DNA of 52,895 bases from Escherichia phage LF82-10: the sequence record PV660453; one strand, 5' to 3'. Positions 2,142 through 52,864 of the stretch are shown here, in pieces. The number at the start of each line of letters is the position of its first letter. Positions within the stretch are counted from its first letter, which is position 1. The notes below the pieces were generated by a model. That model did no database searches. It was not told the origin of the DNA and saw nothing but the letters and a program-made list of their open reading frames with translations. Position numbers and translations under genes: made by a program.

Positions 2142-2148
2142 TATAATC

Positions 2149-2176
2149 AGCCGGGCTAATAACCCGGCTTTTTTAT
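2149..2176 (+). terminator. intrinsic terminator-like hairpin between terminase and portal genes
   Basis: GCCGGG-CTAATAA-CCCGGC followed by TTTTTTATT. Confidence 0.5.
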
Positions 2177-2189
2177 TGAGGAAATCGCT

Positions 2190-3506
2190 ATGACTAAGCA
2201 GAAAAAGCCCGTCAAAATGGACTCGTACAACGAGACATTCAAGGGCGCAGGTACAGACCGCGCGCACAGCGGCCTAAACTATTATTACAACGTCACGCAG
2301 TTCTACATTGACAACCCGCTAGCCCGTAAGATTATCGACGTTATACCGGAGGAAATGGTTTTTCCTGGGTTCGGTATCGACGGCGAAACGGATGAGAAGG
2401 AATTTAAATCCCGATGGGATGCGCTGAAGATGAACGAGCAGATTGTTGAAGCGTTTGCGTGGGAACGCCTTTACGGTGGCTCAGCAATCGTGGCTGTGAT
2501 CAATGACCGCCGCGCGCTCACTTCGCCAGCCAAAGAGGGTGCCCCGCTTGAGTCTATCCGAGTGTACGAAAAGGAGCAGGTCAAGATCCAGACGCGAGAA
2601 ACCAACCCGCGTAATGTTCGCTACGGTATGCCGAAGACGTACACCATCAACCCTGGTGGCTCTATGCCTGAGTACGAGATCCACTATTCGCGAATCTACA
2701 TCAACGATGGTGATCGCGTGCCCGGTTCGGTTCGCCGTCAAAATGAGGGGTGGGGTGCTTCCGTTCTTTCTCGCGGAATGATTGATGCCATCACGGACTA
2801 TGACTACTGCGAAGAGCTTGCAACTCAGCTTTTACGCCGTAAGCAGCAAGCGGTGTGGAAGGCTCGCGGCCTGGCTGATTTATGCGATGATGATGAAGGG
2901 CGCTACGCGGCACGAATCAGGCTTGCTCAGGTTGACGATAACAGCGGCGTTGGGCGTGCGGTTGGTATTGATGCCACGGATGAAGAGTACGAAATCTTGA
3001 ACTCCGATATCAACGGCGTTGACGCTTTTCTTGATAAGAAAATGGATCGCATCGTGAACTATTCCGGCATCCATGAAATCATCCTGAAGAATAAGAACGT
3101 GGGCGGCGTTTCAGCGAGCCAAAACACGGCGCTTGAGACATTCTACAAGATGATTGACCGCCGCCGTAACGAGCGATACAGGCCGCTTCTGGAGTGGTTG
3201 TTGCCGTTCATGATTCAAGAGCAAGAATGGTCTATCCGGTTCGACCCTCTCTCTATGCCGTCAGAGAAAGAACAGGCTGAGACATTCGAGCGTTACACCA
3301 ATGCGGTTGACAAGCTGATCACGAATCAGGCTATTGACACCGAAGAGGCGCGCGATACACTTGAATCTGTTTCTGATGTGCTCAAGCTGAAATCCGGCTT
3401 GCCGAAGTTGCCGCCGCGCGATAAGACTGGCAAAGATCAGCAGGGTAAAGAGAAAGTAACCACACTGCCAAAAGGGGCTACAGATGAAGGTTCAGGGGAT
3501 AGCTAA
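2190..3506 (+). CDS. portal protein
   Basis: 438 aa directly after terminase; preceded by terminator hairpin 2149-2176. Confidence 0.7.
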   Translation: MTKQKKPVKMDSYNETFKGAGTDRAHSGLNYYYNVTQFYIDNPLARKIIDVIPEEMVFPGFGIDGETDEKEFKSRWDALKMNEQIVEAFAWERLYGGSAIVAVINDRRALTSPAKEGAPLESIRVYEKEQVKIQTRETNPRNVRYGMPKTYTINPGGSMPEYEIHYSRIYINDGDRVPGSVRRQNEGWGASVLSRGMIDAITDYDYCEELATQLLRRKQQAVWKARGLADLCDDDEGRYAARIRLAQVDDNSGVGRAVGIDATDEEYEILNSDINGVDAFLDKKMDRIVNYSGIHEIILKNKNVGGVSASQNTALETFYKMIDRRRNERYRPLLEWLLPFMIQEQEWSIRFDPLSMPSEKEQAETFERYTNAVDKLITNQAIDTEEARDTLESVSDVLKLKSGLPKLPPRDKTGKDQQGKEKVTTLPKGATDEGSGDS

Positions 3507-4248
3507 ACAGTGGCGCTATCCAGAAGCAAGCGAGCGGGAATTATCCCGCTCTCTGGCAACGTTCGCGGGTGAGCTTATCGTGTTTGCTCGCGATCAACTG
3601 GATAAGATGAAGTTTGACGCTAGCGCCGATGAGATAGATCAGGCAGAAAGCGAGCTTGAAGATTACGCCGCGTATCTGATCGCAGGTCTGATGGCCTTGC
3701 TTCCATCGCTGGCGCTGAAGATTTACCGCTTCAACTCGCAGCAGTTTATTGATGTTGCCAAATCTGCTGGCGGGAAAAAGAATCCGGTTGTGGTTCTGCT
3801 TATCGCTCTGGGATATAACGCTAACGAGCCGTGGTATCGTGAGAAAGAAGATAACTGGCTATCTCTCACAGAGGCAAGTTATCGTAAGCTGGCGAATGAT
3901 ATCATTGCTGACTGGTCTAACACCGTAAGGATGGAAAACGCCAAAGGCAAGAGCCGTGAGTATATCGACGATGTGATTGAGCAGCGTTACAAGGTGTATA
4001 CTGGCTGGACGGTAAACAGATCTCGTGGAATCGTTGCGACTTGGAATAGTTTACTGATGCGCGCGCGCCTGGAAGATTCAGGAGTGACGCATTATTTTTG
4101 GCATGGTAAACTTGACGAACGCGAGCGCCTTAAGCACTTGTTATGGGAGAACAAACGAATCGCCATAAACAGCGATCACGTATTCCCAGGTGAAGAATAC
4201 GGTTGCCGATGCTGGGCAACTCCTGACTTTTACAATATCGAGGAATGA
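3484..4248 (+). CDS. minor head protein (Mu F / SPP1 gp7-like head morphogenesis)
   Basis: 254 aa after portal; C-terminal FPGEEYGCRCWATPDF-type motif typical of Mu F-like proteins; overlaps portal stop. Confidence 0.5.
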   Translation: MKVQGIAKQWRYPEASERELSRSLATFAGELIVFARDQLDKMKFDASADEIDQAESELEDYAAYLIAGLMALLPSLALKIYRFNSQQFIDVAKSAGGKKNPVVVLLIALGYNANEPWYREKEDNWLSLTEASYRKLANDIIADWSNTVRMENAKGKSREYIDDVIEQRYKVYTGWTVNRSRGIVATWNSLLMRARLEDSGVTHYFWHGKLDERERLKHLLWENKRIAINSDHVFPGEEYGCRCWATPDFYNIEE

Positions 4249-5375
4249 AAATGACCACTAAACAACGCTATGATAGCGCACCAATCAAGGCACGATTCGA
4301 TTCAAACGGATATCTTCATGATGAGCCAATCATCGCGCGAATCGGCATTCAATCGTACATGAAACCAGATGGAACCATGCAGCGTGAATTTCGCCCGGCT
4401 AGCGAGGTATTCAGCGAGAAGTCAATGAAGTCTTTTCAAGGGATGCCGATTGTTGAAGGTCACAAGGAGATCACCGTTAAGAACGCGCGAGGTGAGGTTG
4501 TTGGCGCGGTGAGCGGAGCGGCGCGCCGTGACGGAATCGGCTTGCTGTGCCCGATCGTAATTCACGATGGTGAATCAATCGAAAGCGCCAAACGAGGCGA
4601 TGCTGCTGAATTATCCGTAGGCTACAAAACAAACGATATTCATCGCGCCGGGTGGGGCAACGTGGTTACTGGTGAGTACGTATTCAAAGACGATGCGGAA
4701 ATGATGGAGAAGATTTTCCCCAGCGGAACCACGATGAGTGACGAATGGGAAGAGTTCGACGTGCTTCAAACAAACATCGTGCCCAACCACATCGCGAAGG
4801 TTCACAAAGGCCGCGCCGGAATCGCTCGTTTAAACCTTGACGGCTCCGAGGAAATCAAGTACGATTCAAGCGTTGACAATCAACCATCAAAGGAAAATGT
4901 TATGACCGTTAAAATTAAGATCGACTCCGCAGAAGTGGAAGTAACACAGGATGTGGCAAACCACATCGAAGCGCTGAAGGCAACCGCAACGGCAGCCAAA
5001 ACAAAGGCTGATACTCTGGAAGCAGAGCGCGACTCACTGAAAGTTAAGGTTGACGGCCTCCCGGCACTGATTGAAGCCGCGATCGCCGAAGCGAAAACAA
5101 AAGCCGATGCAGAAAACGAAATCAAAACTTTCGCCACTGAAATTGGCGTTAAGTGTGACGGCCTGGATAACAAAGCGATTAAAGTTGCAGTTATCAAAGA
5201 GGTGTTAGGTATCGACGCAGCAGAGAAAAGCGATGCTTATATTGATCAGTCATTTGAAATCGCGCGCGATTCTGATAAGATGGCGGCTAATCGCGTTAAA
5301 ATCTCCGGCTCTAACGGCAAGGAAGACGGCGCTGATACTGGCATCCCTGATGCTCAGGCTCGTTTCCGCAAGTAA
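4245..5375 (+). CDS. capsid scaffolding protein (possibly protease-scaffold)
   Basis: 376 aa; C-terminal Ala/Lys/Glu-rich coiled-coil-like region (EALKATATAAKTKADTLEAERDSLKVKV); position between portal/MuF and capsid genes. Confidence 0.5.
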   Translation: MKMTTKQRYDSAPIKARFDSNGYLHDEPIIARIGIQSYMKPDGTMQREFRPASEVFSEKSMKSFQGMPIVEGHKEITVKNARGEVVGAVSGAARRDGIGLLCPIVIHDGESIESAKRGDAAELSVGYKTNDIHRAGWGNVVTGEYVFKDDAEMMEKIFPSGTTMSDEWEEFDVLQTNIVPNHIAKVHKGRAGIARLNLDGSEEIKYDSSVDNQPSKENVMTVKIKIDSAEVEVTQDVANHIEALKATATAAKTKADTLEAERDSLKVKVDGLPALIEAAIAEAKTKADAENEIKTFATEIGVKCDGLDNKAIKVAVIKEVLGIDAAEKSDAYIDQSFEIARDSDKMAANRVKISGSNGKEDGADTGIPDAQARFRK

Positions 5376-5433
5376 TAAAACAAGCGGCTGAAATATGCCG
5401 CTTCACTCTCTCTGAAGAAAAGGAAAAATAATC

Positions 5434-5967
5434 ATGGCACTTATTCAAGCAAGCTACACCGTTCACCGTTCAAAGGCATACGCTGGTATGCACGCCGACA
5501 CCTCAGCTTACAACATCGACGGCACTTGCTGCGCTGGTGTTGACAAACTCCCGGTTGGCGTATTCGTCGCACTCGATCCGGCTGGCGGCGTTGTTGACGG
5601 TCACAAGGTAGTAACCAACGTTATCGACACTGCGGCAAGCAACCCTAATCTGGTTGGCGCAACTCTGATGAGCCACGCTTATTCACCTGAAGGTGTTTAC
5701 GATGAAGGTTCAGCAGTGAACGTAATGACCGCCGGGCGCATTTGGGTGCTGTGTGCTAAGTCTTTGGCTGATGCAAACAAGGCATTCAACGTTCAGGTTA
5801 ACATTAACGCAAAAGGTGAAGTTGTTAACCCTGGCTCCGGCGCAATCGGCACTGTTTACACCACCACTGGCGAATGGCTGAAGACTGACGATCCGAATTA
5901 CGACCTGATCAAGGTTCAGCTTACACAGGCTCAGTTCCAGCTTCCGGCATCCGGTGGCGGCGCGTAA
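5434..5967 (+). CDS. hypothetical capsid accessory/decoration protein
   Basis: 177 aa between scaffold and major capsid gene (lambda D-like position); followed by strong terminator; function by synteny only. Confidence 0.3.
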   Translation: MALIQASYTVHRSKAYAGMHADTSAYNIDGTCCAGVDKLPVGVFVALDPAGGVVDGHKVVTNVIDTAASNPNLVGATLMSHAYSPEGVYDEGSAVNVMTAGRIWVLCAKSLADANKAFNVQVNINAKGEVVNPGSGAIGTVYTTTGEWLKTDDPNYDLIKVQLTQAQFQLPASGGGA

Positions 5968-5974
5968 TTAAACA

Positions 5975-5998
5975 GGGAGCTTCGGCTCCCTTTTTATT
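5975..5998 (+). terminator. intrinsic terminator
   Basis: GGGAGC-TTCG-GCTCCC then TTTTTATTT. Confidence 0.6.
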
Positions 5999-6019
5999 TA
6001 TGTCTACCACAAAAAGATA

Positions 6020-6047
6020 TTGACCGTTTAGCAAAAAGTGCTATTAT
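6020..6047 (+). promoter_or_regulatory. sigma70-like promoter of major capsid gene (TTGACC-16-TATTAT) with TAGCA-box in spacer
   Basis: hexamers at 6020-6025 and 6042-6047; box TAGCAAAAAGTGCTA at 6029-6043. Confidence 0.5.
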
Positions 6048-6090
6048 TGACGCGTGACCTAATCACGCATTCAATCAAAAGGAAAATGTT

Positions 6091-7044
6091 ATGACCATGA
6101 AACTTGATTCATTCGAGCAGAACGAAATTACGGTAGGCCTTCGCAAGATGGGTGTTGCGGCAAGCAAAGCGGATCGCCTGGGTATCTGGACTGTAGAGCA
6201 GATGAAGCAGACGCTTAAGCGTCAGTATGAAGCGGCTTATCCCGAAACATCAGCGCTGGCGCTCTTCCCGGTTACAACCGAAATTGCACCAACAACCCGC
6301 ATCTTCGAATACATGAAGATTGACGGCGTGACCATGGCGAAAATCATCGCGGATTATACTGACGATCTGCCTCTGGTTGATGCGACCCATAGCCTGGAAA
6401 CAGGCCGCGTACACCGCCTGGGTAACGCGTGGATGATTTCCATTGACGAAATCAAAACTGGTGCGGCGCTGGGTTCTTCCCTGTCTGACCGCAAGGCAAC
6501 ACTGGCGCGCGAAGCGCACGAAACGCTGGTGAATACTCTGGTGTTCCAGGGTTCCAAGCCTCACAAAATTCTGTCTGTGTTCGACAACCCGAACATCACC
6601 CGCGTAACTTCAGCGGCTGGCGCGTGGGCTGACCCTGAAAAGGCAAGCGACGAACTGACGGATCTGATTGAGAAAATGGAAACCCTGACCAAAGGCAAGC
6701 ACAAGATCACCGATATTGTGATCCCGCCTTCTCAGCGTAAGATCCTGGCTAAGCGCATGCCGGAAACCACGATGAGTTACTTGCAGTGGTTTGAGTCTCA
6801 GAACGGCGGTATCACAATTAGCTCAATCTCTGAGCTTGAAGATATCGACGGCATCGGTACCAAAGGCATTCTTGCCTACGAGAAAGACCCGATGAACATG
6901 AGCATCGAGATCCCGGAAGCATTCAACATGCTCCCAATGCAGCCTAAAGACCTGCATTTCAAAGTGCCTTGTACGTCCAAGACTACTGGCCTGATCGTTT
7001 ATCGTCCTCTGACGATTATCTTGCTGGTTGGCGTAGGTAAGTAA
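6091..7044 (+). CDS. major capsid protein
   Basis: 317 aa; own promoter (TTGACC-16-TATTAT, 6020-6047) and flanking terminators imply high expression; size and position. Confidence 0.65.
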   Translation: MTMKLDSFEQNEITVGLRKMGVAASKADRLGIWTVEQMKQTLKRQYEAAYPETSALALFPVTTEIAPTTRIFEYMKIDGVTMAKIIADYTDDLPLVDATHSLETGRVHRLGNAWMISIDEIKTGAALGSSLSDRKATLAREAHETLVNTLVFQGSKPHKILSVFDNPNITRVTSAAGAWADPEKASDELTDLIEKMETLTKGKHKITDIVIPPSQRKILAKRMPETTMSYLQWFESQNGGITISSISELEDIDGIGTKGILAYEKDPMNMSIEIPEAFNMLPMQPKDLHFKVPCTSKTTGLIVYRPLTIILLVGVGK

Positions 7045-7049
7045 GACGA

Positions 7050-7079
7050 AGCCCCTGATTAATTTCAGGGGCTTTTTTG
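7050..7079 (+). terminator. intrinsic terminator after major capsid gene
   Basis: AGCCCCTGA-TTAATT-TCAGGGGCT then TTTTTTG. Confidence 0.6.
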
Positions 7080-7147
7080 TTGACACGCTGCCGGAAAGTT
7101 TTGTATATTGACGGCTCACAAACAAGTAAACCAAAAGGTGAATTATC

Positions 7148-7414
7148 ATGGCTGCAAAGAAAAACGTAATGAAGAACATTGGCGCTTGCCTGGTGCGTAT
7201 CGGCATGGTGGATGTTAAGCCGAACGAAACGATTGAGCTGACAGACGAACAGCTAAATTCACAGGGTGTTAAATCCCTGCTACACCGTGAGGTTTTGGAG
7301 TTCGAAGATGATCCGAAGCGCACGCGTGAACTTCTCGAAGTGATTCGCAAGAAGGCGAAACCAAAAGAAGAGAAGACCATTGAACAGCGTGAGAAAGCGC
7401 CGGATATCGAATAA
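7148..7414 (+). CDS. hypothetical head protein
   Basis: 88 aa, ATG with SD AAGGTG, flanked by terminators. Confidence 0.35.
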   Translation: MAAKKNVMKNIGACLVRIGMVDVKPNETIELTDEQLNSQGVKSLLHREVLEFEDDPKRTRELLEVIRKKAKPKEEKTIEQREKAPDIE

Positions 7415-7417
7415 CCG

Positions 7418-7446
7418 AAAGGGGGCGTAATGCTCCCTTTTTTTAT
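7418..7446 (+). terminator. intrinsic terminator
   Basis: AAGGGGGCG-TAA-TGCTCCCTT then TTTTTTT. Confidence 0.6.
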
Positions 7447-7460
7447 ACCTGGAGGAAACC

Positions 7461-7868
7461 ATGAACGAAGATGAAATGAAGATCGCAGAGATTATGCGAA
7501 AGCTTGCGCCAGCGCTAAAGAACGTGCCAGATCAGACGATTGTTGTTTGGATTAACCTTGCGGAAATGTTCGTGTGTGCCAATAAGTTTGGCGACAAGTA
7601 TCACCAGGCCGTCGCACTCTATACGATGCACCTGATGTTCCTTGATGGCGCGATGAAGGGCGAGAAAGAAACTCTTGAGAGTTATTCACGTCGTGTAACG
7701 TCATTCACTCTGAGCGGTGAATTTTCCACGAGCTACGGGGCAGTGACCGCCAATAATACCGGGCGATCAATCCATGATACGCCATGGGGCAAAATGTACG
7801 ATATTCTCAACAAGAAAAAAGGCGGCGGGTTCGGCCTGATTTCAGGAATCAGAGGTTGTGGGCGATGA
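7461..7868 (+). CDS. head-tail connector protein (putative)
   Basis: 135 aa; SD GGAGGAAACC before ATG; synteny. Confidence 0.4.
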   Translation: MNEDEMKIAEIMRKLAPALKNVPDQTIVVWINLAEMFVCANKFGDKYHQAVALYTMHLMFLDGAMKGEKETLESYSRRVTSFTLSGEFSTSYGAVTANNTGRSIHDTPWGKMYDILNKKKGGGFGLISGIRGCGR

Positions 7869-8245
7869 TAAATTATGCAGAGATTCAGAATCTGACCGAT
7901 CAGGGGATCAACGCTTTTGCTGGTGATGGCGGAGAGTTCGACGTGATCTTAACTGGTGGCGGCGTGCGGGTTGGCGACGATGGAAAGGAAATTGTCGTGC
8001 CGCCTCGGATGGGCAAAGTGCATGGCGCGGTTCGTGCGATCTCCTATCGCTACATCGACGGCGAAAACATACGGTTCGGTGACAAGCGCGCATTCTTCTC
8101 GAACGTCACGCCGCTTGAGAATGGAATGATCGTAATCATCGACGGCGAGCACTGGCGCATAGTTGACACGCGCCCGGTTAACCCTACACAAACGCACGTT
8201 ATCGCATATCGTCCTATACTGCGAAAGGTTGCGGCTCATGTCTAA
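7865..8245 (+). CDS. head-tail adaptor / head closure (putative)
   Basis: ATG at 7865 overlaps upstream stop (ATGA); 126 aa; synteny. Confidence 0.4.
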   Translation: MINYAEIQNLTDQGINAFAGDGGEFDVILTGGGVRVGDDGKEIVVPPRMGKVHGAVRAISYRYIDGENIRFGDKRAFFSNVTPLENGMIVIIDGEHWRIVDTRPVNPTQTHVIAYRPILRKVAAHV

Positions 8246-8681
8246 TTACCAGGTGCGCAAGTTTCACGGTGATATTTCTCGTTGGATTCTGCGCACTCAG
8301 AAGGGGCTAGAGGACGTGGTTAGAGAGTTCGTTAAATCGGTTCACGCGGAGCTTGTAAAGACCTCACCAGTAGATACAGGGCGATTCCGAGCTAACTGGC
8401 AGATAACCTATAACCACGTACCGCTATACGCTCTCAATGAGTACGACAAAACCGGAGAGAAAACGATCGCGTCAGGGGTTCGAATTGCAAACGCGTTGCC
8501 GTTGGGCAGAGGTGGCGCGGTTACTTCAATCTACTTTTCGAACATGTTAATCTATGCCAACGCGCTCGAATACGGGCATTCACGGCAAGCGCCAGCGGGT
8601 GTGCTGGGGTTGGTGGCGATACGCTTACGATCTCACATGGCGGCGGCGATTAAACAATCAAGGATTAAAAATGGTTTATGA
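8238..8681 (+). CDS. tail completion / neck protein (putative)
   Basis: in-frame ATG (MSNYQV...) at 8238 within ORF-track 8163..8681; synteny. Confidence 0.4.
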   Translation: MSNYQVRKFHGDISRWILRTQKGLEDVVREFVKSVHAELVKTSPVDTGRFRANWQITYNHVPLYALNEYDKTGEKTIASGVRIANALPLGRGGAVTSIYFSNMLIYANALEYGHSRQAPAGVLGLVAIRLRSHMAAAIKQSRIKNGL

Positions 8682-9081: not shown

Positions 9082-9083
9082 TT

Positions 9084-9764: not shown

Positions 9765-9767
9765 TCC

Positions 9768-9797
9768 GAAGGGGGGCTATTGCTCCCCTTTTTCTTT
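9768..9797 (+). terminator. intrinsic terminator after major tail gene
   Basis: GGGGGGC-TAT-TGCTCCCC then TTTTTCTTTT. Confidence 0.6.
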
Positions 9798-9840
9798 TGT
9801 GATTTAATACGCGAAACACAACCAATCAGAGGATTTAATT

Positions 9841-10158: not shown

Positions 10159-10175
10159 AAAGGGCAGTCGAGCTA

Positions 10176-10469
10176 ATGTATCGACGAGTGCCCACAGAAG
10201 CAGAGCTTGCCGATTACGGCCTGACAATGGAAGATTACCTAAATGAAGACCCTGAGATCTTAGAGTTTGATTCAGAGCTTTATGCGTCATGGGAAATGTT
10301 TTGCGCGATGCAAACACAGTGGCGATCTTCCGGCGTTGGCGCAATTGGCCTTGATTATAACGTGTTGCCTATGTTGTTCCGAATCTATAAAATAGAAGAC
10401 GAAGAACTAGCCTTAAACGACGTGCGAATCATGGAAGCGGAAGCGCTGAAACGTATGCACAAAAAATAA
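10176..10469 (+). CDS. tail assembly chaperone T-like segment (likely made as G-T fusion by -1 frameshift)
   Basis: ORF in -1 frame relative to 9841..10158; frame is open from slippery site 10152 through 10176. Confidence 0.55.
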   Translation: MYRRVPTEAELADYGLTMEDYLNEDPEILEFDSELYASWEMFCAMQTQWRSSGVGAIGLDYNVLPMLFRIYKIEDEELALNDVRIMEAEALKRMHKK

Positions 10470-10490
10470 GCGCCTTCGGGCGCTTTTCTT
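10468..10490 (+). terminator. terminator/attenuator hairpin before tape measure gene
   Basis: AAGCGCC-TTCG-GGCGCTT then TTCTT. Confidence 0.5.
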
Positions 10491-10503
10491 ATATGGGGGT
10501 TTT

Positions 10504-13203
10504 ATGACCGAACAGTATGCAGGTTTGAGCCTTGAAGTTGACGTGTCGCAGGTTGACAAAGCTGCGGTTTCGCTTGAGAACTTCGCGAAGGCGAATGACA
10601 CGGCTGCGAAGGGTGTTGATAAGTTTATCAACCAGGAGCAGGTTGCACGCCAGAAACAAAAGGAATACGTAGAGGAGATCAAGAAGGGTAACGCCGAGTT
10701 TGCCAGGATCGAGAAGGTCATTGACCCGGCAGTGTCAAAGATCAAGCAATTGCAAACCGCTGGCGCAGATCTCGAAAAGCTATGGCAGAAAGGGCTTGTG
10801 CCTGATGAGCGCTTTTTCCAGTTGGGTGACGTTATCGACACTCAGATCGGGGCGCTGAAGAAGTCACAGCAAGCACTGACTGAGGAAGGCCGCGCAGCAC
10901 TGGAAAACGCGAAGGCGAAAGCACAGGCGCAACGTGACGGCGATCGCTTCATCAAGCAGTTGCAGGAGCAAGCCAACGCCGCAACCATGACCAAGACCGA
11001 GATCTTAGAAATGAAGGCCGCGCAGTTGGGCGTTACGGCACAGGCCGCGCCACTGATCGCAGCCATGAACAAGCAGACTAGCGCCATCAATCTTGCTGGC
11101 ATTTCGGCTGGGCAGTACAACCAGGCAATGCGAATGCTTCCGGCGCAGATCACGGACGTTGTGACTTCATTAGCATCAGGGATGCCTGTTTGGCTTGTTG
11201 CCATCCAGCAGGGCGGCCAGATCAAGGACAGCTTCGGCGGAATCGGTAACACGTTCAAAGTGTTGTTGTCTTACCTCAATCCGCTTAATGTTGGCATTGG
11301 CCTGACGGTTGGCGCGCTGGGCGCTCTCATCTTCCAGGTTGTGAAGGCTCGCGGAGAGATTACGGCAGCGCAGAAAGCCGTTGCAGAGTCATTGGGCATG
11401 ACTGGTGATTACGCCGATAAGCTGGCGTTAAACCTTCGCAACATTGCTGACGCTTCAAAGCAGACAGCAGAGGAGGCGGCTAAGGCTTTCATTTCCACGA
11501 AAGATAAAGCGGCAGAGGCACAGGCCAAACTGATTGATGTTGGTTTCAGCTACGACGAAGCGCGCCAGATGGTTGAGAAGTACAAAGGATCGTCTGATTT
11601 CACTTTCCTTAACACGGAGATTGAGCGCCATCGCCTTGAGGTGCTGGGCATTAAAGATGCGTGGAGTGATGCGGCTGAGGAAGTCAAGAACTACTACACC
11701 GGGGCGAAGGAAGGCAAGCAAAGCGTAGCGCTGGGCGGCGCGATTGACCCTATCATCAAGATCATCGAGCGTGCCAAAAATCTCCAGGTTGAGACTAACA
11801 AGGCGCGAATCGAAGGTAACAAGATCGTAAATGATACCGTCAACCTCGTTGAAAAAGAGTACCTTGCAAGCAACCGCGTTGCTGCGGCTAAGAAGGCTCT
11901 TACTGAGGCCGAGAAGTACGCGAAAACAATCGCGGCATCCGGCAACGCTGAGGCGATCAAGCAGTCGAAAGAGCTGATTGAGATTCGCAAGAAGGAGATC
12001 AAGCAAGCTGAGGAGGCTGAAGCGAAGAAGAACAAGCCTAAGAAAGTTTCACAGGGCGCAATTGTTCGATCGCCTGAAGAGCAGCTTGACAAAGAGCTTT
12101 ACACGCTCAAAGCTCAGTTGAAGGTGTTGCAGGAGCATCAAAACATCGGTGAGCGCATTTCAAGCCAGCGTAAATCATTGTGGAGCGTTGAGGCTCAGAT
12201 CTCAATCCTTCAGGAAGCGCAGAGTAAGCGCCGATTGTCGAATGAGGAAAAGGCGTTGCTGACGAGCCAGCAAAAGGTGCTGGCGATGGCTCAGGAGAAA
12301 GCGGAGTTAGGCGATCAGATTTTGGCTCAAGAGAAGTTAAACGCTCTTAATGACAAATCGCTTGCCTTTGTGATCCAAATGAACCAGTCAGCACAAGCCC
12401 TCAACGAAACACGCGCCATGGGCAACCGTGAGGCAGAGCGTGCGGCGGCGAAGGCTAAGATCACCTCTGATTACATGGCGCAGGGTGGCGGCAAGGATGA
12501 TGCAGCGTTGCAGAAGATGATCAAAGCACAGGACGACTACTACGCGGCTGAAGATGCGAAGCGTGCAGACTGGTTAGCCGGGGCGAAAAACGCCTTTGCC
12601 AACTACGGTGACGCGGCAACGGATATGTACTCCAACGTTGGGCAGATTGCCAGCAGCGCGCTTAACGGAATGTCAGATATGATGGCGGAGTTTCTCATGA
12701 CGGGCAAAGCCAACTTTGAGGACTTCGCGAAGAGCATCATCAGCCAGATCATTAAGATGATCACACAGATGGTAATCTTTAACAGCATTTCCGGCATGAT
12801 GGGCGGCGGCGGTTGGTCATTCGCTGGTGCTGGTTTCTCTGGTGGTGGCTACACTGGCGACGGCGGGAAGTATCAGCCAGCCGGAACGGTTCACCGTGGC
12901 GAGTTTGTCATGACCAAGGAAGCAACAAAGAGGATTGGCGTTGACAACCTGTATCGACTGATGCGAGGCTATGCTAACGGCGGTTATGTTGGCGGCTCAT
13001 CTTCCGGCACTGGTGCTGGCGGTAGCTTCGGCGGCGGATTCTCTCTGACGATTGGCAGCATCCCGGTTGACGTGAACAACGGAGGCGATCCGAAAGGCAT
13101 GGAGCAGGGAATTAAGGCAATCTTCCAGCAGATGATTCAGGAGTCATGCGCGCAGGGAGGAGAGGTTTACAACTTCATTCAACAGAAAACAGGAGCGGGT
13201 TAA
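10504..13203 (+). CDS. tail tape measure protein
   Basis: 899 aa, Ala/Gln/Lys-rich coiled-coil-like N-terminal two-thirds, Gly-rich C-terminal part; position. Confidence 0.85.
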   Translation: MTEQYAGLSLEVDVSQVDKAAVSLENFAKANDTAAKGVDKFINQEQVARQKQKEYVEEIKKGNAEFARIEKVIDPAVSKIKQLQTAGADLEKLWQKGLVPDERFFQLGDVIDTQIGALKKSQQALTEEGRAALENAKAKAQAQRDGDRFIKQLQEQANAATMTKTEILEMKAAQLGVTAQAAPLIAAMNKQTSAINLAGISAGQYNQAMRMLPAQITDVVTSLASGMPVWLVAIQQGGQIKDSFGGIGNTFKVLLSYLNPLNVGIGLTVGALGALIFQVVKARGEITAAQKAVAESLGMTGDYADKLALNLRNIADASKQTAEEAAKAFISTKDKAAEAQAKLIDVGFSYDEARQMVEKYKGSSDFTFLNTEIERHRLEVLGIKDAWSDAAEEVKNYYTGAKEGKQSVALGGAIDPIIKIIERAKNLQVETNKARIEGNKIVNDTVNLVEKEYLASNRVAAAKKALTEAEKYAKTIAASGNAEAIKQSKELIEIRKKEIKQAEEAEAKKNKPKKVSQGAIVRSPEEQLDKELYTLKAQLKVLQEHQNIGERISSQRKSLWSVEAQISILQEAQSKRRLSNEEKALLTSQQKVLAMAQEKAELGDQILAQEKLNALNDKSLAFVIQMNQSAQALNETRAMGNREAERAAAKAKITSDYMAQGGGKDDAALQKMIKAQDDYYAAEDAKRADWLAGAKNAFANYGDAATDMYSNVGQIASSALNGMSDMMAEFLMTGKANFEDFAKSIISQIIKMITQMVIFNSISGMMGGGGWSFAGAGFSGGGYTGDGGKYQPAGTVHRGEFVMTKEATKRIGVDNLYRLMRGYANGGYVGGSSSGTGAGGSFGGGFSLTIGSIPVDVNNGGDPKGMEQGIKAIFQQMIQESCAQGGEVYNFIQQKTGAG

Positions 13204-13550
13204 TGGCACTTGATATTTTTAAATGGTGCGTGCAGTTGCAGAATGGCGGTGGCGTGATGAGCGTCACCAACAATGACAGGCAAGTGCAGTTTGGCAACGG
13301 TTTCCGGCAGGTAGGATCTGCTGGGTTCAACACGGAGCGGCGAGAGTATGCGATCGTCTATTTCGGTGAGGACTGGCGCGAGGTTCGGCAATTCCTGCGA
13401 GATCACCGATTGAAACCTTTCGCATTCACGCCACCAGAGGACACGATCGGAATATTCTTGCTGAAGCCTGACACTCTGGCAACCGCACCAAAGGGTAAAG
13501 GTTTGCTTGAGGTAACTTGCACACTTGTAGAACAATTCACAGCAGCGTAA
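13203..13550 (+). CDS. minor tail protein (lambda gpM-like)
   Basis: ATG 13203 overlaps tape measure stop (TAATG); 115 aa; synteny with L/K/I/J. Confidence 0.6.
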   Translation: MALDIFKWCVQLQNGGGVMSVTNNDRQVQFGNGFRQVGSAGFNTERREYAIVYFGEDWREVRQFLRDHRLKPFAFTPPEDTIGIFLLKPDTLATAPKGKGLLEVTCTLVEQFTAA

Positions 13551-13555
13551 AATAA

Positions 13556-13580
13556 AGCCTCCTAACGGGGGCTTTTTTAT
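13556..13580 (+). terminator. intrinsic terminator
   Basis: AGCCTCC-TAAC-GGGGGCT then TTTTTTATT. Confidence 0.55.
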
Positions 13581-13590
13581 TGGGGGTAAT

Positions 13591-14337
13591 ATGTCACCAG
13601 CATTTGAGAACGCACTAGCCAGTTTATACCCTGGCGAAATCATCACATTGATAGAGGTTGACGGCACCAAGTTTGGCGCGCAGGTCTACCGCTTCCACGG
13701 CGAAAACATCGCCTTTACTCCTGAAGAGATTCTTGCGGCTACTCAGCCGGGCGGAAGTCTTCAGCCGAAAACAATCACGTTCCAGGGTAACGAATACGGC
13801 GCGCGCCCGTTCGGGATTTCTGGCGTTAACTTCAACGGCAACGGCAAGGCAGGAAAGGTCACGCTCACGCTGTCAAACATTGATAGCCAGGTATCGGCGC
13901 TTATCCGCTCGTATAACGGGATGATGCAAGCGAAGGTCACTATCTGGATAACTCAGAAAGATTTGCTTGCCGACGATGGCACCGTTTCGCCAGGTGACTT
14001 CAGAAAGCTTGTGTACTTCATCGAGCGACCAAATTTTGTGGATCAGAACGTGGCGCGGTTCGAGCTTACCAGCCCATACGATATGGATGGCATCATGATC
14101 CCGGCGCGAATCACTCAGAGCGTTTGCTATTGGGCGCAGCGCGGTTGGTATCGCTCAGGTAAGGGTTGCAGCTACAACGGCAACCGATATTTCGATAAAG
14201 ACAACAATCCGACAGACGACCCAAGCCAGGACGTTTGCGCAGGAACAGCAACGGCGTGCAAGCTTCGCTTCGGCTCAGATCAGGAACTTGATTTCGGCGG
14301 TTGCGCAGTGGCTTCACTTGACAGAAGGAATCAATGA
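13591..14337 (+). CDS. minor tail protein (lambda gpL-like)
   Basis: 248 aa; C-terminal four-Cys cluster (C..C..C..C) as in gpL-type proteins; synteny. Confidence 0.7.
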   Translation: MSPAFENALASLYPGEIITLIEVDGTKFGAQVYRFHGENIAFTPEEILAATQPGGSLQPKTITFQGNEYGARPFGISGVNFNGNGKAGKVTLTLSNIDSQVSALIRSYNGMMQAKVTIWITQKDLLADDGTVSPGDFRKLVYFIERPNFVDQNVARFELTSPYDMDGIMIPARITQSVCYWAQRGWYRSGKGCSYNGNRYFDKDNNPTDDPSQDVCAGTATACKLRFGSDQELDFGGCAVASLDRRNQ

Positions 14338-15062
14338 TGTTACAGCCAAAAATTAAGATGGCAATCTTCGAACATGCGAAAGAGGTTTACCCGCACGAGT
14401 GTTGCGGCGTGGTGACTCAAAAGGGGCGAGTGCAGAAATATTGGCGAGTGGATAACGTACACTCTGATCCTGAAAATCATTTCCAGATGCATCCTGTGCA
14501 ATACGCCGAAATCGAAGACGACGCGGAGCTAACCACGATCGCCATCGTTCACAGTCACACAGGAGACGGTGCAACAACGCTACCGAGCGCGCACGACAAG
14601 TGCATAATGAATGAAATGCAAGTGCCATGGGTTATCGTTAGCTTGCCGGAGGGTGATTTGAGGGTTGTTAATCCAGAGTCAATCCCTCTGATTGGTAGAC
14701 CCTGGGCGCTTGGATCGTATGATTGCTGGGGGCTGGTGATGGCGTGGCACCGTGAGCAGGGCGTGATCTTGAATGACTTCAGAAAGCCCTACGAGTGGTG
14801 GAAGCCGGAGCATGGAGAAAACCTCTATCAAGAAAACTATCTTGCGGAGGGGTTCGTTGAAACAGGTAAAGATCCAGAGCCAGGGGATATGGTAATATTC
14901 CAGCTACAGGCTAACGTATGGAACCATGCGGGAATCTACGTGGGCAACAACCAAATCCTTCATCACGCATTCGGAAAGCTGTCAAGGCACGATATTTATT
15001 CTGGATGGTATCAGGATCACGCGGTAATGATTTGCAGACATAAGGACTTAAAACCATGCTGA
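14334..15062 (+). CDS. tail assembly protein (lambda gpK-like; JAB/MPN + NlpC/P60)
   Basis: 242 aa; JAMM-like HSHTGDGATTLPSAHD motif and C-terminal Cys/His region (YDCWGLV...NHAGIYVG...LHH) typical of NlpC/P60. Confidence 0.8.
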   Translation: MMLQPKIKMAIFEHAKEVYPHECCGVVTQKGRVQKYWRVDNVHSDPENHFQMHPVQYAEIEDDAELTTIAIVHSHTGDGATTLPSAHDKCIMNEMQVPWVIVSLPEGDLRVVNPESIPLIGRPWALGSYDCWGLVMAWHREQGVILNDFRKPYEWWKPEHGENLYQENYLAEGFVETGKDPEPGDMVIFQLQANVWNHAGIYVGNNQILHHAFGKLSRHDIYSGWYQDHAVMICRHKDLKPC

Positions 15063-15649
15063 AGACGATTAAACTTTCAGGCTCGTTGGGCAAACGCTTT
15101 GGCGTATTCCACAAATTTTGCGTAGACAGCTACCCGGAGGCAATTCGGGCGCTTTCATCCCAGGTTGAAGGATTTAAGGAATACATGCAAAGCGAGGTTG
15201 GATCGCGAATGAGCTACGCAATTTTTGTGGACGGCAAGAACATTGGCGCTACGGATGAGCACGCCTTCGCCATCGCGAAAGAGATTCGCATCATCCCGGT
15301 TCCGACTGGCTCAAAATCTGGCGGACTGTTTCAGATTGTGGTTGGCGCTGTGATCATGGTTGCGGCATTCTATACTGGCGGAGCGTCGCTGGCGCTAATG
15401 GGAACGTTCGCAACGTCAGCTTTCATGATGGGCGGTGCAATGGTGCTGGGCGGCGTGATGCAGATGATCTCACCGCAGCAGGGCGGAATGAAGATGGAAA
15501 TGCAGAGCAGCAAGAACAAGCCATCATACGCATTCGGCGGAGCAGTAAATACCACGGCGGCTGGCTATCCTTTGCCGCTACCATACGGACGACGAACGAA
15601 CGGCGGCGCGGTGTATTCAGCCGCGAGTGTTGCCGAAGATATGAGCTAA
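15056..15649 (+). CDS. tail assembly protein (lambda gpI-like)
   Basis: 197 aa with Gly/Ala/Met-rich hydrophobic C-terminal half; between K-like and J-like genes. Confidence 0.65.
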   Translation: MLKTIKLSGSLGKRFGVFHKFCVDSYPEAIRALSSQVEGFKEYMQSEVGSRMSYAIFVDGKNIGATDEHAFAIAKEIRIIPVPTGSKSGGLFQIVVGAVIMVAAFYTGGASLALMGTFATSAFMMGGAMVLGGVMQMISPQQGGMKMEMQSSKNKPSYAFGGAVNTTAAGYPLPLPYGRRTNGGAVYSAASVAEDMS

Positions 15650-15652
15650 CAG

Positions 15653-15678
15653 AAGCCCGCCTTGCGCGGGTTTTTTTT
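15653..15678 (+). terminator. intrinsic terminator before J-like gene
   Basis: AAGCCCGC-CTTG-CGCGGGTT then TTTTTTTT; followed by -10 TGTATAAT (15683-15690). Confidence 0.6.
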
Positions 15679-15726
15679 CGCCTGTATAATGGGTTCTTCT
15701 ATAAACCGCACGAAAAGGTAAACACA

Positions 15727-18700
15727 ATGAATAAAAAAGTGTTAGTGCATGGCTCAAAGGGTGGTTCACCAAAGCCGCACACGCCACAGGAAATGGAAGA
15801 CAACTTAATTTCAATCAACAAAATTAAGGTGCTTCTGGCTATTTCTGACGGTGAGATTGATCCTGATTTCAGCCTTAAAGATCTGTATCTCAATGACGTT
15901 CCTGTGCAGTCGAAAGAAGGAACGATGAACTACGATGGCGTGATTGCCGAGTTTAGACCGGGAACGCAAACGCAATCTTACATTCAGGGTTTTACTGACA
16001 CGGCAAGCGAGGTGACTGTAAACCGAGCGCTGAAGCAAGATAACCCTTTCATCTTCCCGGTAACGAACAAAAGCATTTCAGCGGTACGCGTTAAGATCTT
16101 CATGCCTCGCGGCGTAAAGACAGAATCAAATGGAGATATGGTTGGCGTTAGGGTTGAATACGCGATTGATTTCGCGGTTGATGGTGGATCATACCAGGAG
16201 GTTCTTAAGGACGTAATCGACGGTAAGACGATGAGCGGCTACGACAGAACCAAACGGATTAACCTTCCTGAATTCAACGATCAGGTATTGGTGCGCGTGC
16301 GTCGTGTAACGATGGATTCAACAGACGCAAGATTGATTGATGAGATCAGCGTGCAATCATATGCTCAAGTTGTCGATGCTAAATTCCGTTACCCCCTGAC
16401 CGGGCTGTTATACGTTGAGCTGAACAGCGCAATGTTCCCACAAATGCCAAATATCAGCGTCAAGAAAAAATGGAAGCTGGTGAAGGTTCCGAGCAACTAC
16501 GATCCAGTAGCGCGCGAGTATCACGGCACATGGGATGGCAGTTTTAAACAGGCATGGAGCAATAACCCTGCATGGGTGCTTTACGACTTGATCACCAATC
16601 AGAGATACGGACTCGACCAGCGCGAATTAGGGATTGATGTTGATAAGTGGAGCTTGTACGAAGCCGGGCAGTATTGCGATCAGCTCGTGCCGGACGGCAA
16701 AGGCGGAACAGAACCGCGCTACCTGTGCGACGTTGTGATTCAGTCTCAGATTGAAGCGTACACGCTAGTGCGTGATATTTGCTCTATCTTCCGTGGGATG
16801 AGCTTTTGGAACGGTGAAAGCCTATCTATCGTGATTGACAGGCCGCGTGATGCGTCTTACATCTTCACGAATGATAACGTGGTGGGCGGTTCATTCTCCT
16901 ACACGTTCGCCAGTGAAAAGAGCATGTACACAACATGCAACGTGACGTTTGACGATGAGCTGAACATGTACCAGCAGGACGTTGAAGCTGTGTTTGATCT
17001 GGATGCGTCTATTCGATTCGGGCACAACCCGACAAGCATAACGGCGATCGGATGCACGCGACGGAGTGAGGCAAACCGCCGAGGGCGCTGGATTCTGAAA
17101 ACGAACTTGCGCAGCACGACAGTTAGCTTTGCTACCGGGCTTGAAGGTATGATCCCAATGGTGGGCGATGTGATTGCGGTTGCGGATAACTTCTGGCAAA
17201 GCAATCTGACGCTTTCCCTTTCCGGGCGATTGATGGAGGTTTCAGGCATTCAGTGCTTCACTCACTTCCGAGTTGATGCGCGGCCAGGTGATTTCATTAT
17301 CGTTAACAAGCCTGATGGTAAGCCAGTGCGCCGCACGATTGCTAACGTATCAGCAGACGGAAAGACCATTGAACTAAATATCGGCTTCGGCTTTGCGGTT
17401 CAGCCAAACGCGGTATTCGCGATTGACCGTCAAGATCTGGCGCTTCAGCAGTATGTTGTTACCGGAATCAGCAAGGGTGATGGAGACGAGGAGTTTACTT
17501 ACTCGATCACGGCGGTTGAGTACGACCCGAACAAGTATGACGAGATTGATTACGGCGTTAACATCGACGACAGGCCGACGAGCATCATCGACCCTGACAA
17601 CATGCAGCCGCCAGAAAATATCAGCGTTTCGTCATATTCCAGGATCGTGCAGGGCATGAGCGTTGAGACGATGGTTATCGGGTGGGATAAGGCGCAGTAC
17701 GCGAGCACATACGATGTTCAATGGCGCAAGGATAATGGTAACTGGATTAACACTCCACGCACCGCAAACACAGAGGTTGAGGTTGAAGGCATCTATGCTG
17801 GCGTTTACCACGTCCGAGTAAGATCGACTTCAGCGGCTGGTAACTCTTCGCCATGGTCAAGCGTAGTGACGGTGAGCTTAACTGGCAAGGTTGGAAAGCC
17901 AGGAGCGCCGACGAGCATCACGGCGAGCACGGATGAGGTGTTTGGTATTCGCGTTAAGTGGGGTATGCCAGCAGGATCAGAGGACACGGCCTACATCGAG
18001 CTTCACCAGTCGAAAGACGGAACGCCGGACAATGCAAGCCTGTTAACGATGATTCCTTATCCTCAGTTTGAATACTGGCACGCGGTGCTCCCGGCTGGTT
18101 ATGTGAACTGGTATCGGGCGCGAGCAGTTGACCGAATCGGCAACGTCTCTGATTGGTCTGACTTCGCACGCGGCATGGCTTCGGATGATGTGGATCAGAT
18201 TTTGGACGTTATCAAGATTGACATTGAGGACAGCGAGATTTTCAAAGAGCTTGCCGAAAATGCAGTTGATACCGCCAACAAGATCAAAGACCAGGCGCAG
18301 ACGGATATTCAGAACGCATTAGCGAATGACTACAACCTGCAATGGACTCGCAAGCAGAACGGCGCACGTAAGGCCGAATACGGTCAAGCGGTGATTCTCA
18401 TTGCCAATGAGACAGAAGCTCGTGTAGCGGCGATTGAGGAGCTTAGAGCGTCAATCAATGACGATATCATTGCTCAAATCAAAACGATTCGAGAAGCGGT
18501 AGCAAATGAGGAGGAGGCACGAGTTAAGGCGGTTCAGGAGCTTGACGCTAAGTTTGCCGGGCAGATTGGAGACTTGCAGACAGCAACAGAGGCGAGCGTA
18601 TCGCGTCTGGATGAGGCGATCGCAAATGAGTCAGAGGCAAGAACTCAGGCAATTTCACAACTCGATGCGAAGTTCCAGGGCGTCATTGATGGAGTTAAGG

Positions 18701-19278
18701 CCGACACTGAAGCCAGCATTACGCGAGTTGATAAAGCCATTGCTAGCGAGACTCAAGCCAGGGTTGAGGCAGATACAGCGCTTGGTGTTCGGGTTGGTAA
18801 CACTGAATCCGCCATCACGCAAAAGCTTGATTCATGGATTCAGAACGGGCAGCCGGGAGCGTCGTATAACGTCAAGTTGGGTATCAAGTACAACGGGCAG
18901 GAGTATAGCGCAGGGATGGGGATGCAGTTGGTTAGCGATCAGTATGGCGTTAGATCGCAAATCCTGTTTGACGCTGACCGATTCGCAGTTGGCAAGATTG
19001 AGAATGGCTCTATTCGTCAGTTGCCGTTTGTGATTGAGGGTAATCAGGTATTCATTCGTGATGCGCTGATTAAAAACGGCTCCATCACTAACGCAATGAT
19101 CGGAAACGTCATTCAGTCAAACAACTATGTTGCTGGTTGGGCTGGTTGGAGAATGGACAAGAACGGAAACCTTGAGATTAACGGCAGCGCCGGAAACGGA
19201 AGGCTGACCATTAACAACAACATCATTGCCGTATATGATGGTAACGGTGTGTTAAGAGTTCGAATGGGATTGTTCTAA
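15727..19278 (+). CDS. tail tip host specificity protein (lambda gpJ-like)
   Basis: 1183 aa; largest tail gene after K/I; C-terminal ~22-aa tandem repeats (EARxxAxxxLDAKFxG); own extended -10 promoter after terminator. Confidence 0.85.
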   Translation: MNKKVLVHGSKGGSPKPHTPQEMEDNLISINKIKVLLAISDGEIDPDFSLKDLYLNDVPVQSKEGTMNYDGVIAEFRPGTQTQSYIQGFTDTASEVTVNRALKQDNPFIFPVTNKSISAVRVKIFMPRGVKTESNGDMVGVRVEYAIDFAVDGGSYQEVLKDVIDGKTMSGYDRTKRINLPEFNDQVLVRVRRVTMDSTDARLIDEISVQSYAQVVDAKFRYPLTGLLYVELNSAMFPQMPNISVKKKWKLVKVPSNYDPVAREYHGTWDGSFKQAWSNNPAWVLYDLITNQRYGLDQRELGIDVDKWSLYEAGQYCDQLVPDGKGGTEPRYLCDVVIQSQIEAYTLVRDICSIFRGMSFWNGESLSIVIDRPRDASYIFTNDNVVGGSFSYTFASEKSMYTTCNVTFDDELNMYQQDVEAVFDLDASIRFGHNPTSITAIGCTRRSEANRRGRWILKTNLRSTTVSFATGLEGMIPMVGDVIAVADNFWQSNLTLSLSGRLMEVSGIQCFTHFRVDARPGDFIIVNKPDGKPVRRTIANVSADGKTIELNIGFGFAVQPNAVFAIDRQDLALQQYVVTGISKGDGDEEFTYSITAVEYDPNKYDEIDYGVNIDDRPTSIIDPDNMQPPENISVSSYSRIVQGMSVETMVIGWDKAQYASTYDVQWRKDNGNWINTPRTANTEVEVEGIYAGVYHVRVRSTSAAGNSSPWSSVVTVSLTGKVGKPGAPTSITASTDEVFGIRVKWGMPAGSEDTAYIELHQSKDGTPDNASLLTMIPYPQFEYWHAVLPAGYVNWYRARAVDRIGNVSDWSDFARGMASDDVDQILDVIKIDIEDSEIFKELAENAVDTANKIKDQAQTDIQNALANDYNLQWTRKQNGARKAEYGQAVILIANETEARVAAIEELRASINDDIIAQIKTIREAVANEEEARVKAVQELDAKFAGQIGDLQTATEASVSRLDEAIANESEARTQAISQLDAKFQGVIDGVKADTEASITRVDKAIASETQARVEADTALGVRVGNTESAITQKLDSWIQNGQPGASYNVKLGIKYNGQEYSAGMGMQLVSDQYGVRSQILFDADRFAVGKIENGSIRQLPFVIEGNQVFIRDALIKNGSITNAMIGNVIQSNNYVAGWAGWRMDKNGNLEINGSAGNGRLTINNNIIAVYDGNGVLRVRMGLF

Positions 19279-19282
19279 TAGA

Positions 19283-19312
19283 AAAGGGAGCCTTGCGGCT
19301 CCCTCTTTTTTT
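19283..19312. terminator. bidirectional terminator between J-like gene and Cor-like gene
   Basis: GGGAGCC-TTGC-GGCTCCC flanked by A-run upstream and T-run downstream. Confidence 0.6.
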
Positions 19313-19643: not shown

Positions 19644-19702
19644 TGGTGTTTCCTCGATTCGTTTATTTAAATTGATTATATCCACCAATCAGGGCGCGTG
19701 CT

Positions 19703-25899: not shown

Positions 25900-25922
25900 T
25901 GTCAACACCTCTTGTTAGTAAA

Positions 25923-52819: not shown

Positions 52820-52843
52820 CAACCCGCTTCGGCGGGTTTTTTT
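52820..52843 (+). terminator. intrinsic terminator at end of rightward accessory operon
   Basis: AACCCGCTTCGGCGGG then TTTTTTT. Confidence 0.6.
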
Positions 52844-52855
52844 GCGTCTGCAATC

Positions 52856-52864
52856 TGGTATAAT
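52856..52864 (+). promoter_or_regulatory. extended -10 promoter (TGGTATAAT) for terminase operon
   Basis: follows terminator 52820-52843; precedes SD and the ATG at position 1. Confidence 0.5.

Follow-up and report, generated by a model that had tools for sequence, protein, structure and literature searches.

How does RNA polymerase reach the distal structural genes of a phage whose late region is punctuated by terminator-like hairpins? The question arises in Escherichia phage LF82-10, of which we analysed a stretch of 52,895 nucleotides (nt; sequence record PV660453), hereafter the window. A sequence-only reading of positions 2149-19312 had described at least nine hairpins with T tracts after the late genes, and had concluded that they imply either partial termination or antitermination. 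We consider it probable that these hairpins are Rho-independent terminators of host RNA polymerase which divide the late region into about nine short units, and that the genes downstream are reached by a combination of internal promoters and leaky read-through, giving a graded dosage.

The window phage is a T1-like member of the family Drexlerviridae. Over its first 20 kb, the window matches Escherichia phages LF82-12, -19, -40 and -11 with 100% identity and Vilniusvirus phages (e.g. NBD2) with about 75% nucleotide identity. The genome is circular, and its late genes form a collinear region on the + strand (1-19278, with the ATG of the small terminase subunit gene, TerS, at position 1). The genes are arranged in the order TerS, TerL, portal, head morphogenesis, protease, decoration-like gene, major capsid and a small open reading frame (ORF); these are followed by five connector or tail-completion genes, the major tail gene, chaperones G/T, tape measure, gpM, L, K, I and J. 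We traced 21 late genes in nine other Drexlerviridae at 30-92% amino acid identity, namely three Vilniusvirus, two Nouzillyvirus and three Henuseptimavirus genomes and phage T1, which together with the window represent at least five genera. Phage T1 has orthologues of 20 of the 21 genes (32-79% amino acid identity); the search across these genes detected none for the small ORF at 7148-7414 (hereafter ORF 7148). For each genome we inspected the DNA 3' of the stop codon of each orthologue, and 'the 10 genomes' below are the window and its nine relatives. The labels T0 to T9 denote terminators of the window, whereas 'phage T1' is always the virus.

On the + strand of the late region, nine GC-rich hairpins directly adjoin a T tract, and a tenth, T0, lies upstream of TerS, beyond the range covered by the sequence-only reading. 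They are listed here with their folding energies as computed with ViennaRNA.

2149..2177 (stem-loop 2149-2169), + strand: T1, after TerL; stem of 7 base pairs (bp) and loop of 7 nt, TTTTTTATT; -13.0 kcal/mol.
5974..6001 (stem-loop 5974-5991), + strand: T2, after the decoration-like gene; AGGGAGC-TTCG-GCTCCCT, TTTTATTTAT; -13.0 kcal/mol.
7048..7083 (stem-loop 7048-7075), + strand: T3, after the major capsid gene; 11-bp stem, TTTTTTGTT; -20.1 kcal/mol and z-score -6.3, the strongest of the nine.
7418..7446 (stem-loop 7418-7440), + strand: T4, after the small ORF at 7148-7414; -14.7 kcal/mol.
9768..9801 (stem-loop 9768-9791), + strand: T5, after the major tail gene; 10-bp stem, TTTTTCTTTT; -17.8 kcal/mol.
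10468..10494 (stem-loop 10468-10485), + strand: T6, overlapping the stop codon of the chaperone T frame; interrupted tail TTTTCTTAT; -11.8 kcal/mol, the weakest of the nine.
13554..13582 (stem-loop 13554-13575), + strand: T7, after the gpM-like gene; -13.3 kcal/mol.
15653..15678 (stem-loop 15653-15673), + strand: T8, after the gpI-like gene; loop CTTGC and eight T; -13.8 kcal/mol.
19285..19312 (stem-loop 19285-19304), both strands: T9, bidirectional, between J (+ strand) and convergent minus-strand genes; -15.9 kcal/mol; passes the strict scan described below on both strands.
52821..52843, + strand: T0, AACCCGC-TTCG-GCGGGTT followed by seven T, upstream of TerS; closes the preceding early unit.

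All nine late hairpins have 7-11 pairs and loops of 4-7 nt, and all lie within the intergenic 3.4% of the region. Eight of the 11 gaps between late genes hold a hairpin with a T tract and one more holds a hairpin without one; the ninth T-tract hairpin is found 3' of J. A strict scan of positions 1-19312 (perfect stem, at least five core pairs, at least four GC pairs and at least seven T in nine positions) returned exactly these nine sites on the + strand; 30 Markov simulations averaged 0.03 such sites and never gave more than 1. A loose scan gave 34 sites against 23.0 +/- 4.3 in shuffled sequences. Each hairpin is co-directional with the gene before it and starts between -2 and +7 nt from the stop codon of that gene. 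At every site at least seven of the nine nt after the GC core are T, the poorest tract being that of T6 (TTTTCTTAT), and only T6 and T9 also pass the strict scan on the opposite strand. Folding energies, a check which the sequence-only reading had itself proposed, range from -11.8 to -20.1 kcal/mol, with z-scores of -2.9 to -6.3 against shuffled sequences. These energies are ordinary for bacterial terminators, the medians reported for non-Streptomyces bacteria being -13.3 to -16.8 kcal/mol (PMC12207403). A d-score in the style of d'Aubenton-Carafa was set aside, as its value varies with the split between stem and tail. The hairpins and T tracts described after the late genes are thus present as claimed, and the nine sites show every sequence property of intrinsic terminators, although termination itself is a prediction.

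The positions of these hairpins are conserved across the family. A hairpin with a T tract is found at the nine junctions in essentially every one of the 10 genomes, amounting to 82 positive combinations of junction and genome; T1 is kept in nine genomes, and T2, T3, T6, T7 and T8 in all 10. Junctions that lack a hairpin in the window show no canonical hairpin in the relatives either, with the exception of a few apparent matches within coding sequence. The stems themselves vary, with five to seven variants at eight junctions (seven at T2) and three at the ninth. In RNAalifold consensus folds, compensatory double changes affect seven of eight pairs at the capsid junction, four of seven at the J junction and one of eight at the gpM junction, where U-G has been replaced by G-C. 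At the decoration junction, sequence-based alignment places unrelated stems out of register and yields no consensus fold; folding each genome separately gives a hairpin in every one. Placement next to the stop codon is also a family-wide property, with a median of 6 nt between stop codon and GC core and a distance of at most 10 nt in 73 of 82 cases.

Phage T1 belongs to the same family and has the same gene order, and its GenBank record (NC_005833) marks a 'rho-independent transcriptional termination site' at all nine homologous junctions as well as before TerS, at the place of T0 (8322-8344). Because positions are conserved, pairing is kept by compensatory changes and the sites are annotated in phage T1, we conclude that the hairpins are real, under selection, and already on record. 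The layout is not new, having been annotated in phage T1 since 2004. Roberts, Martin and Kropinski (2004) are reportedly the source for the 'transcriptons' of the phage T1 late region. The summary given in PMC11447400 describes these as transcriptons flanked by terminators; the same paper lists 21 intergenic terminators in phage TLS, where transcriptons were not confirmed under stricter promoter criteria. Four T1-like phages have 18-21 terminators and 5-10 promoters (PMC4070988). The stem sequences of phage T1 are unlike those of the window.

If termination occurs at these sites, genes behind each hairpin need either a new promoter or read-through. Sigma-70-type promoter candidates in the window are good for four units (TerS, major capsid, ORF 7148 and J) and doubtful for two (portal and chaperone). 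The candidates that have been assigned coordinates are as follows.

52856..52864, + strand: promoter-like element of TerS; extended -10 TGGTATAAT, 31 nt before the TerS ATG and after T0; no -35 hexamer at 17 nt, and a promoter function is presumed.
2118..2147, + strand: portal promoter candidate; TTAGCA-18-TGaTATAAT, its -10 ending 1 nt before the T1 hairpin; doubtful.
6020..6047, + strand: promoter-like element of the major capsid gene; TTGACC-16-TGcTATTAT, 28 nt after T2; near-consensus.
7080..7109, + strand: promoter-like element of ORF 7148; TTGACA-18-TATATT, beginning in the T tract of T3.
15662..15690, + strand: promoter-like element of gene J, nested in T8; -35 TTGCGC spanning loop and 3' arm, then 17 nt of spacer with the T tract inside it, and -10 TATAAT.

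The geometry of several of these elements is conserved. Before the capsid gene, hexamers and spacing are identical in Vilniusvirus and XT34 although the spacer sequence varies, and these genomes also carry TTGACA-17-TATATT or TTGACA-17-TACATT at the position of the ORF 7148 element, with a different spacer sequence. The nested arrangement before J, TTGCG(C/G)-17-TATAAT, is found in all 10 genomes, phage T1 included. A comparable pattern is seen at the major tail junction, where a loop TTGC, 17 nt and a -10-like hexamer are kept in all lineages; in the window, the T5 loop has TTGCTC (9780-9785) followed after 17 nt by TTTAAT (9803-9808), and the chaperone promoter candidate is doubtful because this hexamer lacks the -11 A. 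For the portal candidate, the start site would fall in the 5' arm of T1 and the -35 is coding sequence that is not conserved; five lineages retain a -10-like hexamer immediately 5' of the hairpin. The window clade differs from phage T1 in that a promoter nested in the gpM terminator, kept in phage T1 and in Tempevirinae, has been lost, and in that the capsid gene and ORF 7148 are each preceded by a predicted consensus promoter of their own.

Our scan of the window found no promoters overlapping or downstream of T4, T6 or T7, and the units starting at 7461, 10504 and 13591 have no promoter candidate. One further sequence, TTGTAG-17-TAAAAT before T7, was not counted, its -35 being in coding sequence and its -10 including the stop codon. 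The promoter-like elements with conserved geometry that lie after or inside four to five of the hairpins speak against a reading of the region as one operon without re-initiation.

Re-initiation does not suffice at every junction. At T1, T4, T6 and T7 the next ATG lies only 20, 20, 18 and 15 nt past the stem, respectively, a distance that includes the Shine-Dalgarno sequence. Because this leaves no room for a promoter, read-through is required at these four sites; at T1 (2149), a promoter with its start site inside the hairpin is a possible alternative. The genes that depend on read-through are portal, the series starting at 7461 and ending with the major tail gene, tape measure together with gpM, and gpL/K/I. 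The four hairpins in question fall within the weaker half of the set (-11.8 to -14.7 kcal/mol), whereas T3, T5 and T9 are the strongest. The inference of partial termination is reasonable for four to five hairpins, but it had overlooked the conserved promoter-like elements inside the region and the earlier annotation in phage T1.

The computed results are the hairpins with their orientation, conservation across genomes and covariation, the geometry of the promoter-like elements, and four junctions with too little space for a promoter. From these we infer that polymerase terminates at the hairpins, but only in part and under modulation by ribosomes, and that stoichiometry is set in this way. 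Intrinsic terminators would split the late region into about nine short units, as in the transcripton layout of phage T1. Transcription would begin anew at sigma-70-type promoters located just after or inside hairpins for TerS, major capsid, ORF 7148 and J, and some polymerases would pass T1, T4, T6, T7 and probably T5. The expected outcome is a graded messenger RNA (mRNA) dosage, in which the major capsid gene would form a unit of its own with a near-consensus promoter and the strongest hairpin, and the tail genes from 7461 to gpI would sit behind up to four successive attenuators.

Such leakiness probably needs no dedicated factor, because every hairpin starts -2 to +7 nt from a stop codon: its 5' arm would be covered by a ribosome that terminates translation while following the polymerase closely. 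In an Escherichia coli reporter series, the tR2 terminator was repressed nearly completely if placed a few bp past a stop codon and reached an efficiency of about 0.9 only beyond about 30 bp, because a ribosome terminating translation sequesters that hairpin's 5' arm (Li et al. 2016, PMC4824070). The distance from coding sequence to termination point is roughly 22-36 nt in the window, compared with a median of 48 nt in E. coli (PMC12207403). Occlusion of stop-proximal hairpins by the ribosome is therefore a plausible factor-free cause of leakiness. The likeness to the tR2 series, in which a hairpin likewise follows a translated ORF by a few nt and termination is nearly abolished, has limits: the series is an engineered reporter with one terminator, and in the window the effect would be by analogy and inapplicable to T6.

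Several points weigh against this account and call for caution. T3 and T5 have the look of efficient terminators. The predicted promoter at 7080 is separated from gpL/K/I by four attenuators in series, and with an efficiency of 80% at each, only about 0.2% of transcripts would arrive; the hairpins must therefore be quite leaky or actively suppressed, and a factor-based mechanism stays alive. Ribosome occlusion cannot explain T6, because the T frame, by analogy with lambda G/GT, would be read only after a rare frameshift. The chaperone genes (9841-10469) have this G/GT layout, with the second frame (10176-10469) in the -1 frame of the first; T6 overlaps the stop codon of the second frame, and most transcripts would come to it with no ribosome translating that frame. 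Late timing is left unexplained, as the predicted late promoters appear to be constitutive, and genome compactness alone could place hairpins near stop codons. Lastly, the literature searched yielded no transcript map for any of the Drexlerviridae, phage T1 included.

The most serious alternative, which we nevertheless regard as unlikely, is that the terminators are efficient and that an unrecognised phage factor renders host RNA polymerase resistant to termination, so that read-through constitutes the switch from early to late expression. Such a product would lack similarity to N, Q, gp39, p7 or put RNA, and the hairpins would keep the structural genes off early in infection. The four terminators without promoter room precede essential genes, gpL, K and I would otherwise be short of transcripts through serial attenuation, and constitutive-looking late promoters call for another timing device; the phage also encodes about 50 small proteins of unknown function. 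Searches for it returned nothing of the kind. No N-like, Q-like or other antiterminator was found among about 50 non-structural ORFs compared with PHROGs or 10 compared with Pfam. The sole regulatory match is phrog_2856 ('transcriptional regulator') for the ORF at 26990-27448 on the minus strand, which has weak similarity to Cro and helix-turn-helix (HTH) proteins; a PDB sequence search with its protein returned no relative. Rfam, applied to the whole window at the gathering threshold, reported only tRNA-Ser, and at E <= 1 over positions 1-20000 only a sub-threshold trp-leader match overlapping the T1 hairpin, probably through its likeness to a terminator. The statement that no N/Q-like antiterminator is recognisable is in agreement with these scans of PHROGs, Pfam and Rfam.

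The lack of an antiterminator match is weak evidence, as such proteins are small and diverse, and nut, QBE and put sites, for which Rfam likewise shows no match, are short and poorly modelled. Nevertheless, late leaders are only about 25-40 nt, so that no late promoter is followed by a long leader with a loading site; a polymerase made processive would have no need of the conserved internal promoters; and the hairpins that need read-through are the weaker ones. We hold it rather improbable that the early-to-late switch is specifically an unrecognised antitermination or processivity device, whether a small early protein or a modification of the polymerase, unlike N, Q, gp39 and p7. If it were so, the nine terminators would act as checkpoints and a Q-like logic would have evolved independently in a strictly lytic model phage.

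Phages lambda and N15 bear on this alternative, as they have hairpins at the same types of junction (after D, E, I and J in lambda terms). Both encode Q, with which they read through the hairpins of their late operons. Their tail module is homologous to that of the window phage, and terminator-like hairpins follow the decoration, major capsid, gpI and J genes; the lambda sites are at 6101, 7163, about 15465 and 18920, and N15 stem-loops are annotated after genes 7, 8, 13 and 20. The hairpins as we delimited them, which between the two phages lie behind decoration, major capsid, major tail, gpI and J genes, span 6097-6120, 7163-7180, 15463-15490 and 18917-18945 in lambda, and 5980-6004, 7053-7073, 9596-9613 and 15307-15330 in N15. 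The differences are considerable: lambda has two to four such sites against nine in the window, those of lambda and N15 lie 10-33 nt from the stop codon against 0-8 nt in the window, several have no good T tract, and no homologue of Q or N was found in the window phage. From the sequences compared, lambda-like late operons may have been punctuated before the T1 family arose. Partial termination within a polycistronic unit also has precedents that lower the dosage of distal genes, namely the rplL-rpoB attenuator of E. coli and T-phi of phage T7; these are single sites, whereas the nine sites of the window form a chain with promoter-like elements between them, some nested inside a terminator.

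It is quite improbable that the hairpins act mainly after transcription, as 3' stabilisers or processing boundaries of one long late transcript that set mRNA half-lives. The two most stable hairpins do follow the genes of the most abundant virion proteins, major capsid and major tail, and in N15 the capsid and tail tube genes are followed by hairpins that lack a T tract. In the window, too, the protease gene is followed by a conserved hairpin of this kind.

5383..5402, + strand: hairpin 3' of the protease gene, lacking a T tract on the + strand; -12.2 kcal/mol; not a canonical terminator.

This hairpin is retained with other stems in Vilniusvirus and XT34 and is missing from genomes in which the genes abut; it may serve to stabilise mRNA or as a site of processing. 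A stabiliser has no need of a T-rich tract directly 3' of the stem on the transcribed strand, yet all nine hairpins, and the 82 orthologous sites, keep one. Furthermore, terminated transcripts would gain 3' protection from the same hairpins in any case, which makes stabilisation more an added benefit of termination than an alternative to it.

The similarity among stems raises a separate question about their origin. The sequence-only reading held that the nine hairpins share one stem of the type GGGAGCC...GGCTCCC. The nine hairpins exist, but this stem type is confined to two of them, at 5974 (GGGAGC) and 19285 (GGGAGCC), or to four if the related GGGGGC/GCTCCC stem at 7418 and 9768 is included; the other five are unrelated, and a stem common to all nine was rejected. 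Among the nine, two pairs have at least 6 nt of the 5' arm in common compared with 0.47 in shuffles (100 of 5000 shuffles reach this value), a marginal excess. Across all 18 terminator-like hairpins of the genome, reuse is much clearer, with nine pairs compared with 0.68 expected (0 of 5000 shuffles), so that the more general observation that several terminators reuse related GC-rich stems stands genome-wide. Two stem families explain this reuse: GGAGCC with five copies and CCCGC with four. Recurring stems in the window are located at 5974/19285, at 23510/34633 and at 37292/49129/52823/15656.

At the decoration and J junctions, the two sites have the same stem within a genome and a different stem between genomes. 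Both carry AGGGAGC(C) in the window, and both carry an identical 22-mer, AAAGGAGCCGAAAGGCTCCTTT, in Vilniusvirus phages NBD2, KLB19 and HazelMika; in one Vilniusvirus genome the pair is located at 7813-7863 and 21215-21265. Stems that recur in a genome and change together between genomes suggest, as a pattern in the sequences, gene conversion or the copying of terminator cassettes. That the hairpins are boundaries of modules at the DNA level, either shared palindromes which promote recombination or incidental palindromes without a transcriptional role, is very improbable, for although recurrent stem families and the matched stems at the decoration and J junctions would fit such a role, the oriented T tracts, the stop-codon-proximal placement and the compensatory changes are RNA-level signatures, and most stems are unique to one junction.

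As the terminators have been on record in phage T1 since 2004, the discovery is a modest one; the apparent nesting of promoters in terminators and the stop-codon proximity of the hairpins are details not met with in the papers we found. Phage T1 is a classic T phage, and Drexlerviridae are common in phage-therapy collections, the LF82 set included. A conserved chain of terminators offers a testable framework for how capsid, tail and tail-tip proteins might be made in unequal amounts by a phage with neither a polymerase of its own nor a known antiterminator. The compact terminator-promoter cassettes could also be used as insulating parts in synthetic biology.

The capsid promoter-like element contains, within its spacer and -10, a reversed copy (6026-6044) of a 19-nt palindromic repeat, ATAGCACnnnTTGnTAAAA, which has been described for phage TLS with its function left open (PMC11447400). 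This repeat has 26 copies in the window compared with 1.6 expected, and an imperfect palindromic core, TAGCA-N5-TG(C/T)TA. About 21 co-directional sites are found in 19700-50920 (e.g. 22232, 30023, 44412 and 49888, and on the minus strand 41589, 39882 and 19718). A -10-like hexamer, often TGn-extended, lies exactly 19 nt after the repeat at 19 of the 26 sites in the window and 15 of 24 in phage T1, with an ATG about 55 nt past the repeat. A -10 at this distance places the centre of the palindrome near -42, matching the layout of a class II activator site. The 19-nt interval after the repeat, either alone or together with the -10, usually forms a GC-rich inverted repeat (e.g. 44431-44455, 49907-49935, 45340-45370 and, on the minus strand, 39840-39863); the hairpin lies upstream of the -10 at some sites and holds it in the loop at others. 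Only two copies (49126 and, on the minus strand, 37289) have interval hairpins with a T tract that score as terminators.

The copy at 6026-6044 is the only one in the late operon. A second reversed copy (25922-25940), relative to the minus-strand tail-fibre gene, lies just downstream of a TATAAT. These two are the only copies beside structural genes, and both are inverted and overlap a core promoter region. One binding protein could thus activate early and middle promoters and occlude late ones, a candidate binder being the HTH protein encoded at 26990-27448 on the minus strand.

Two further observations concern the window as a whole. A tRNA-Ser gene (anticodon GCT) is found at 52298-52385, immediately upstream of the final early genes and the terminase, and an equivalent tRNA-Ser is present in NBD2. 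Within the tail-fibre gene (23533-25899, minus strand), 84 nt of PV660455 (LF82-12) are missing from the window at about 25461, an in-frame difference of 28 codons; over the anchors checked the two sequences are otherwise identical, and coordinates past 25460 are offset by -84 nt.

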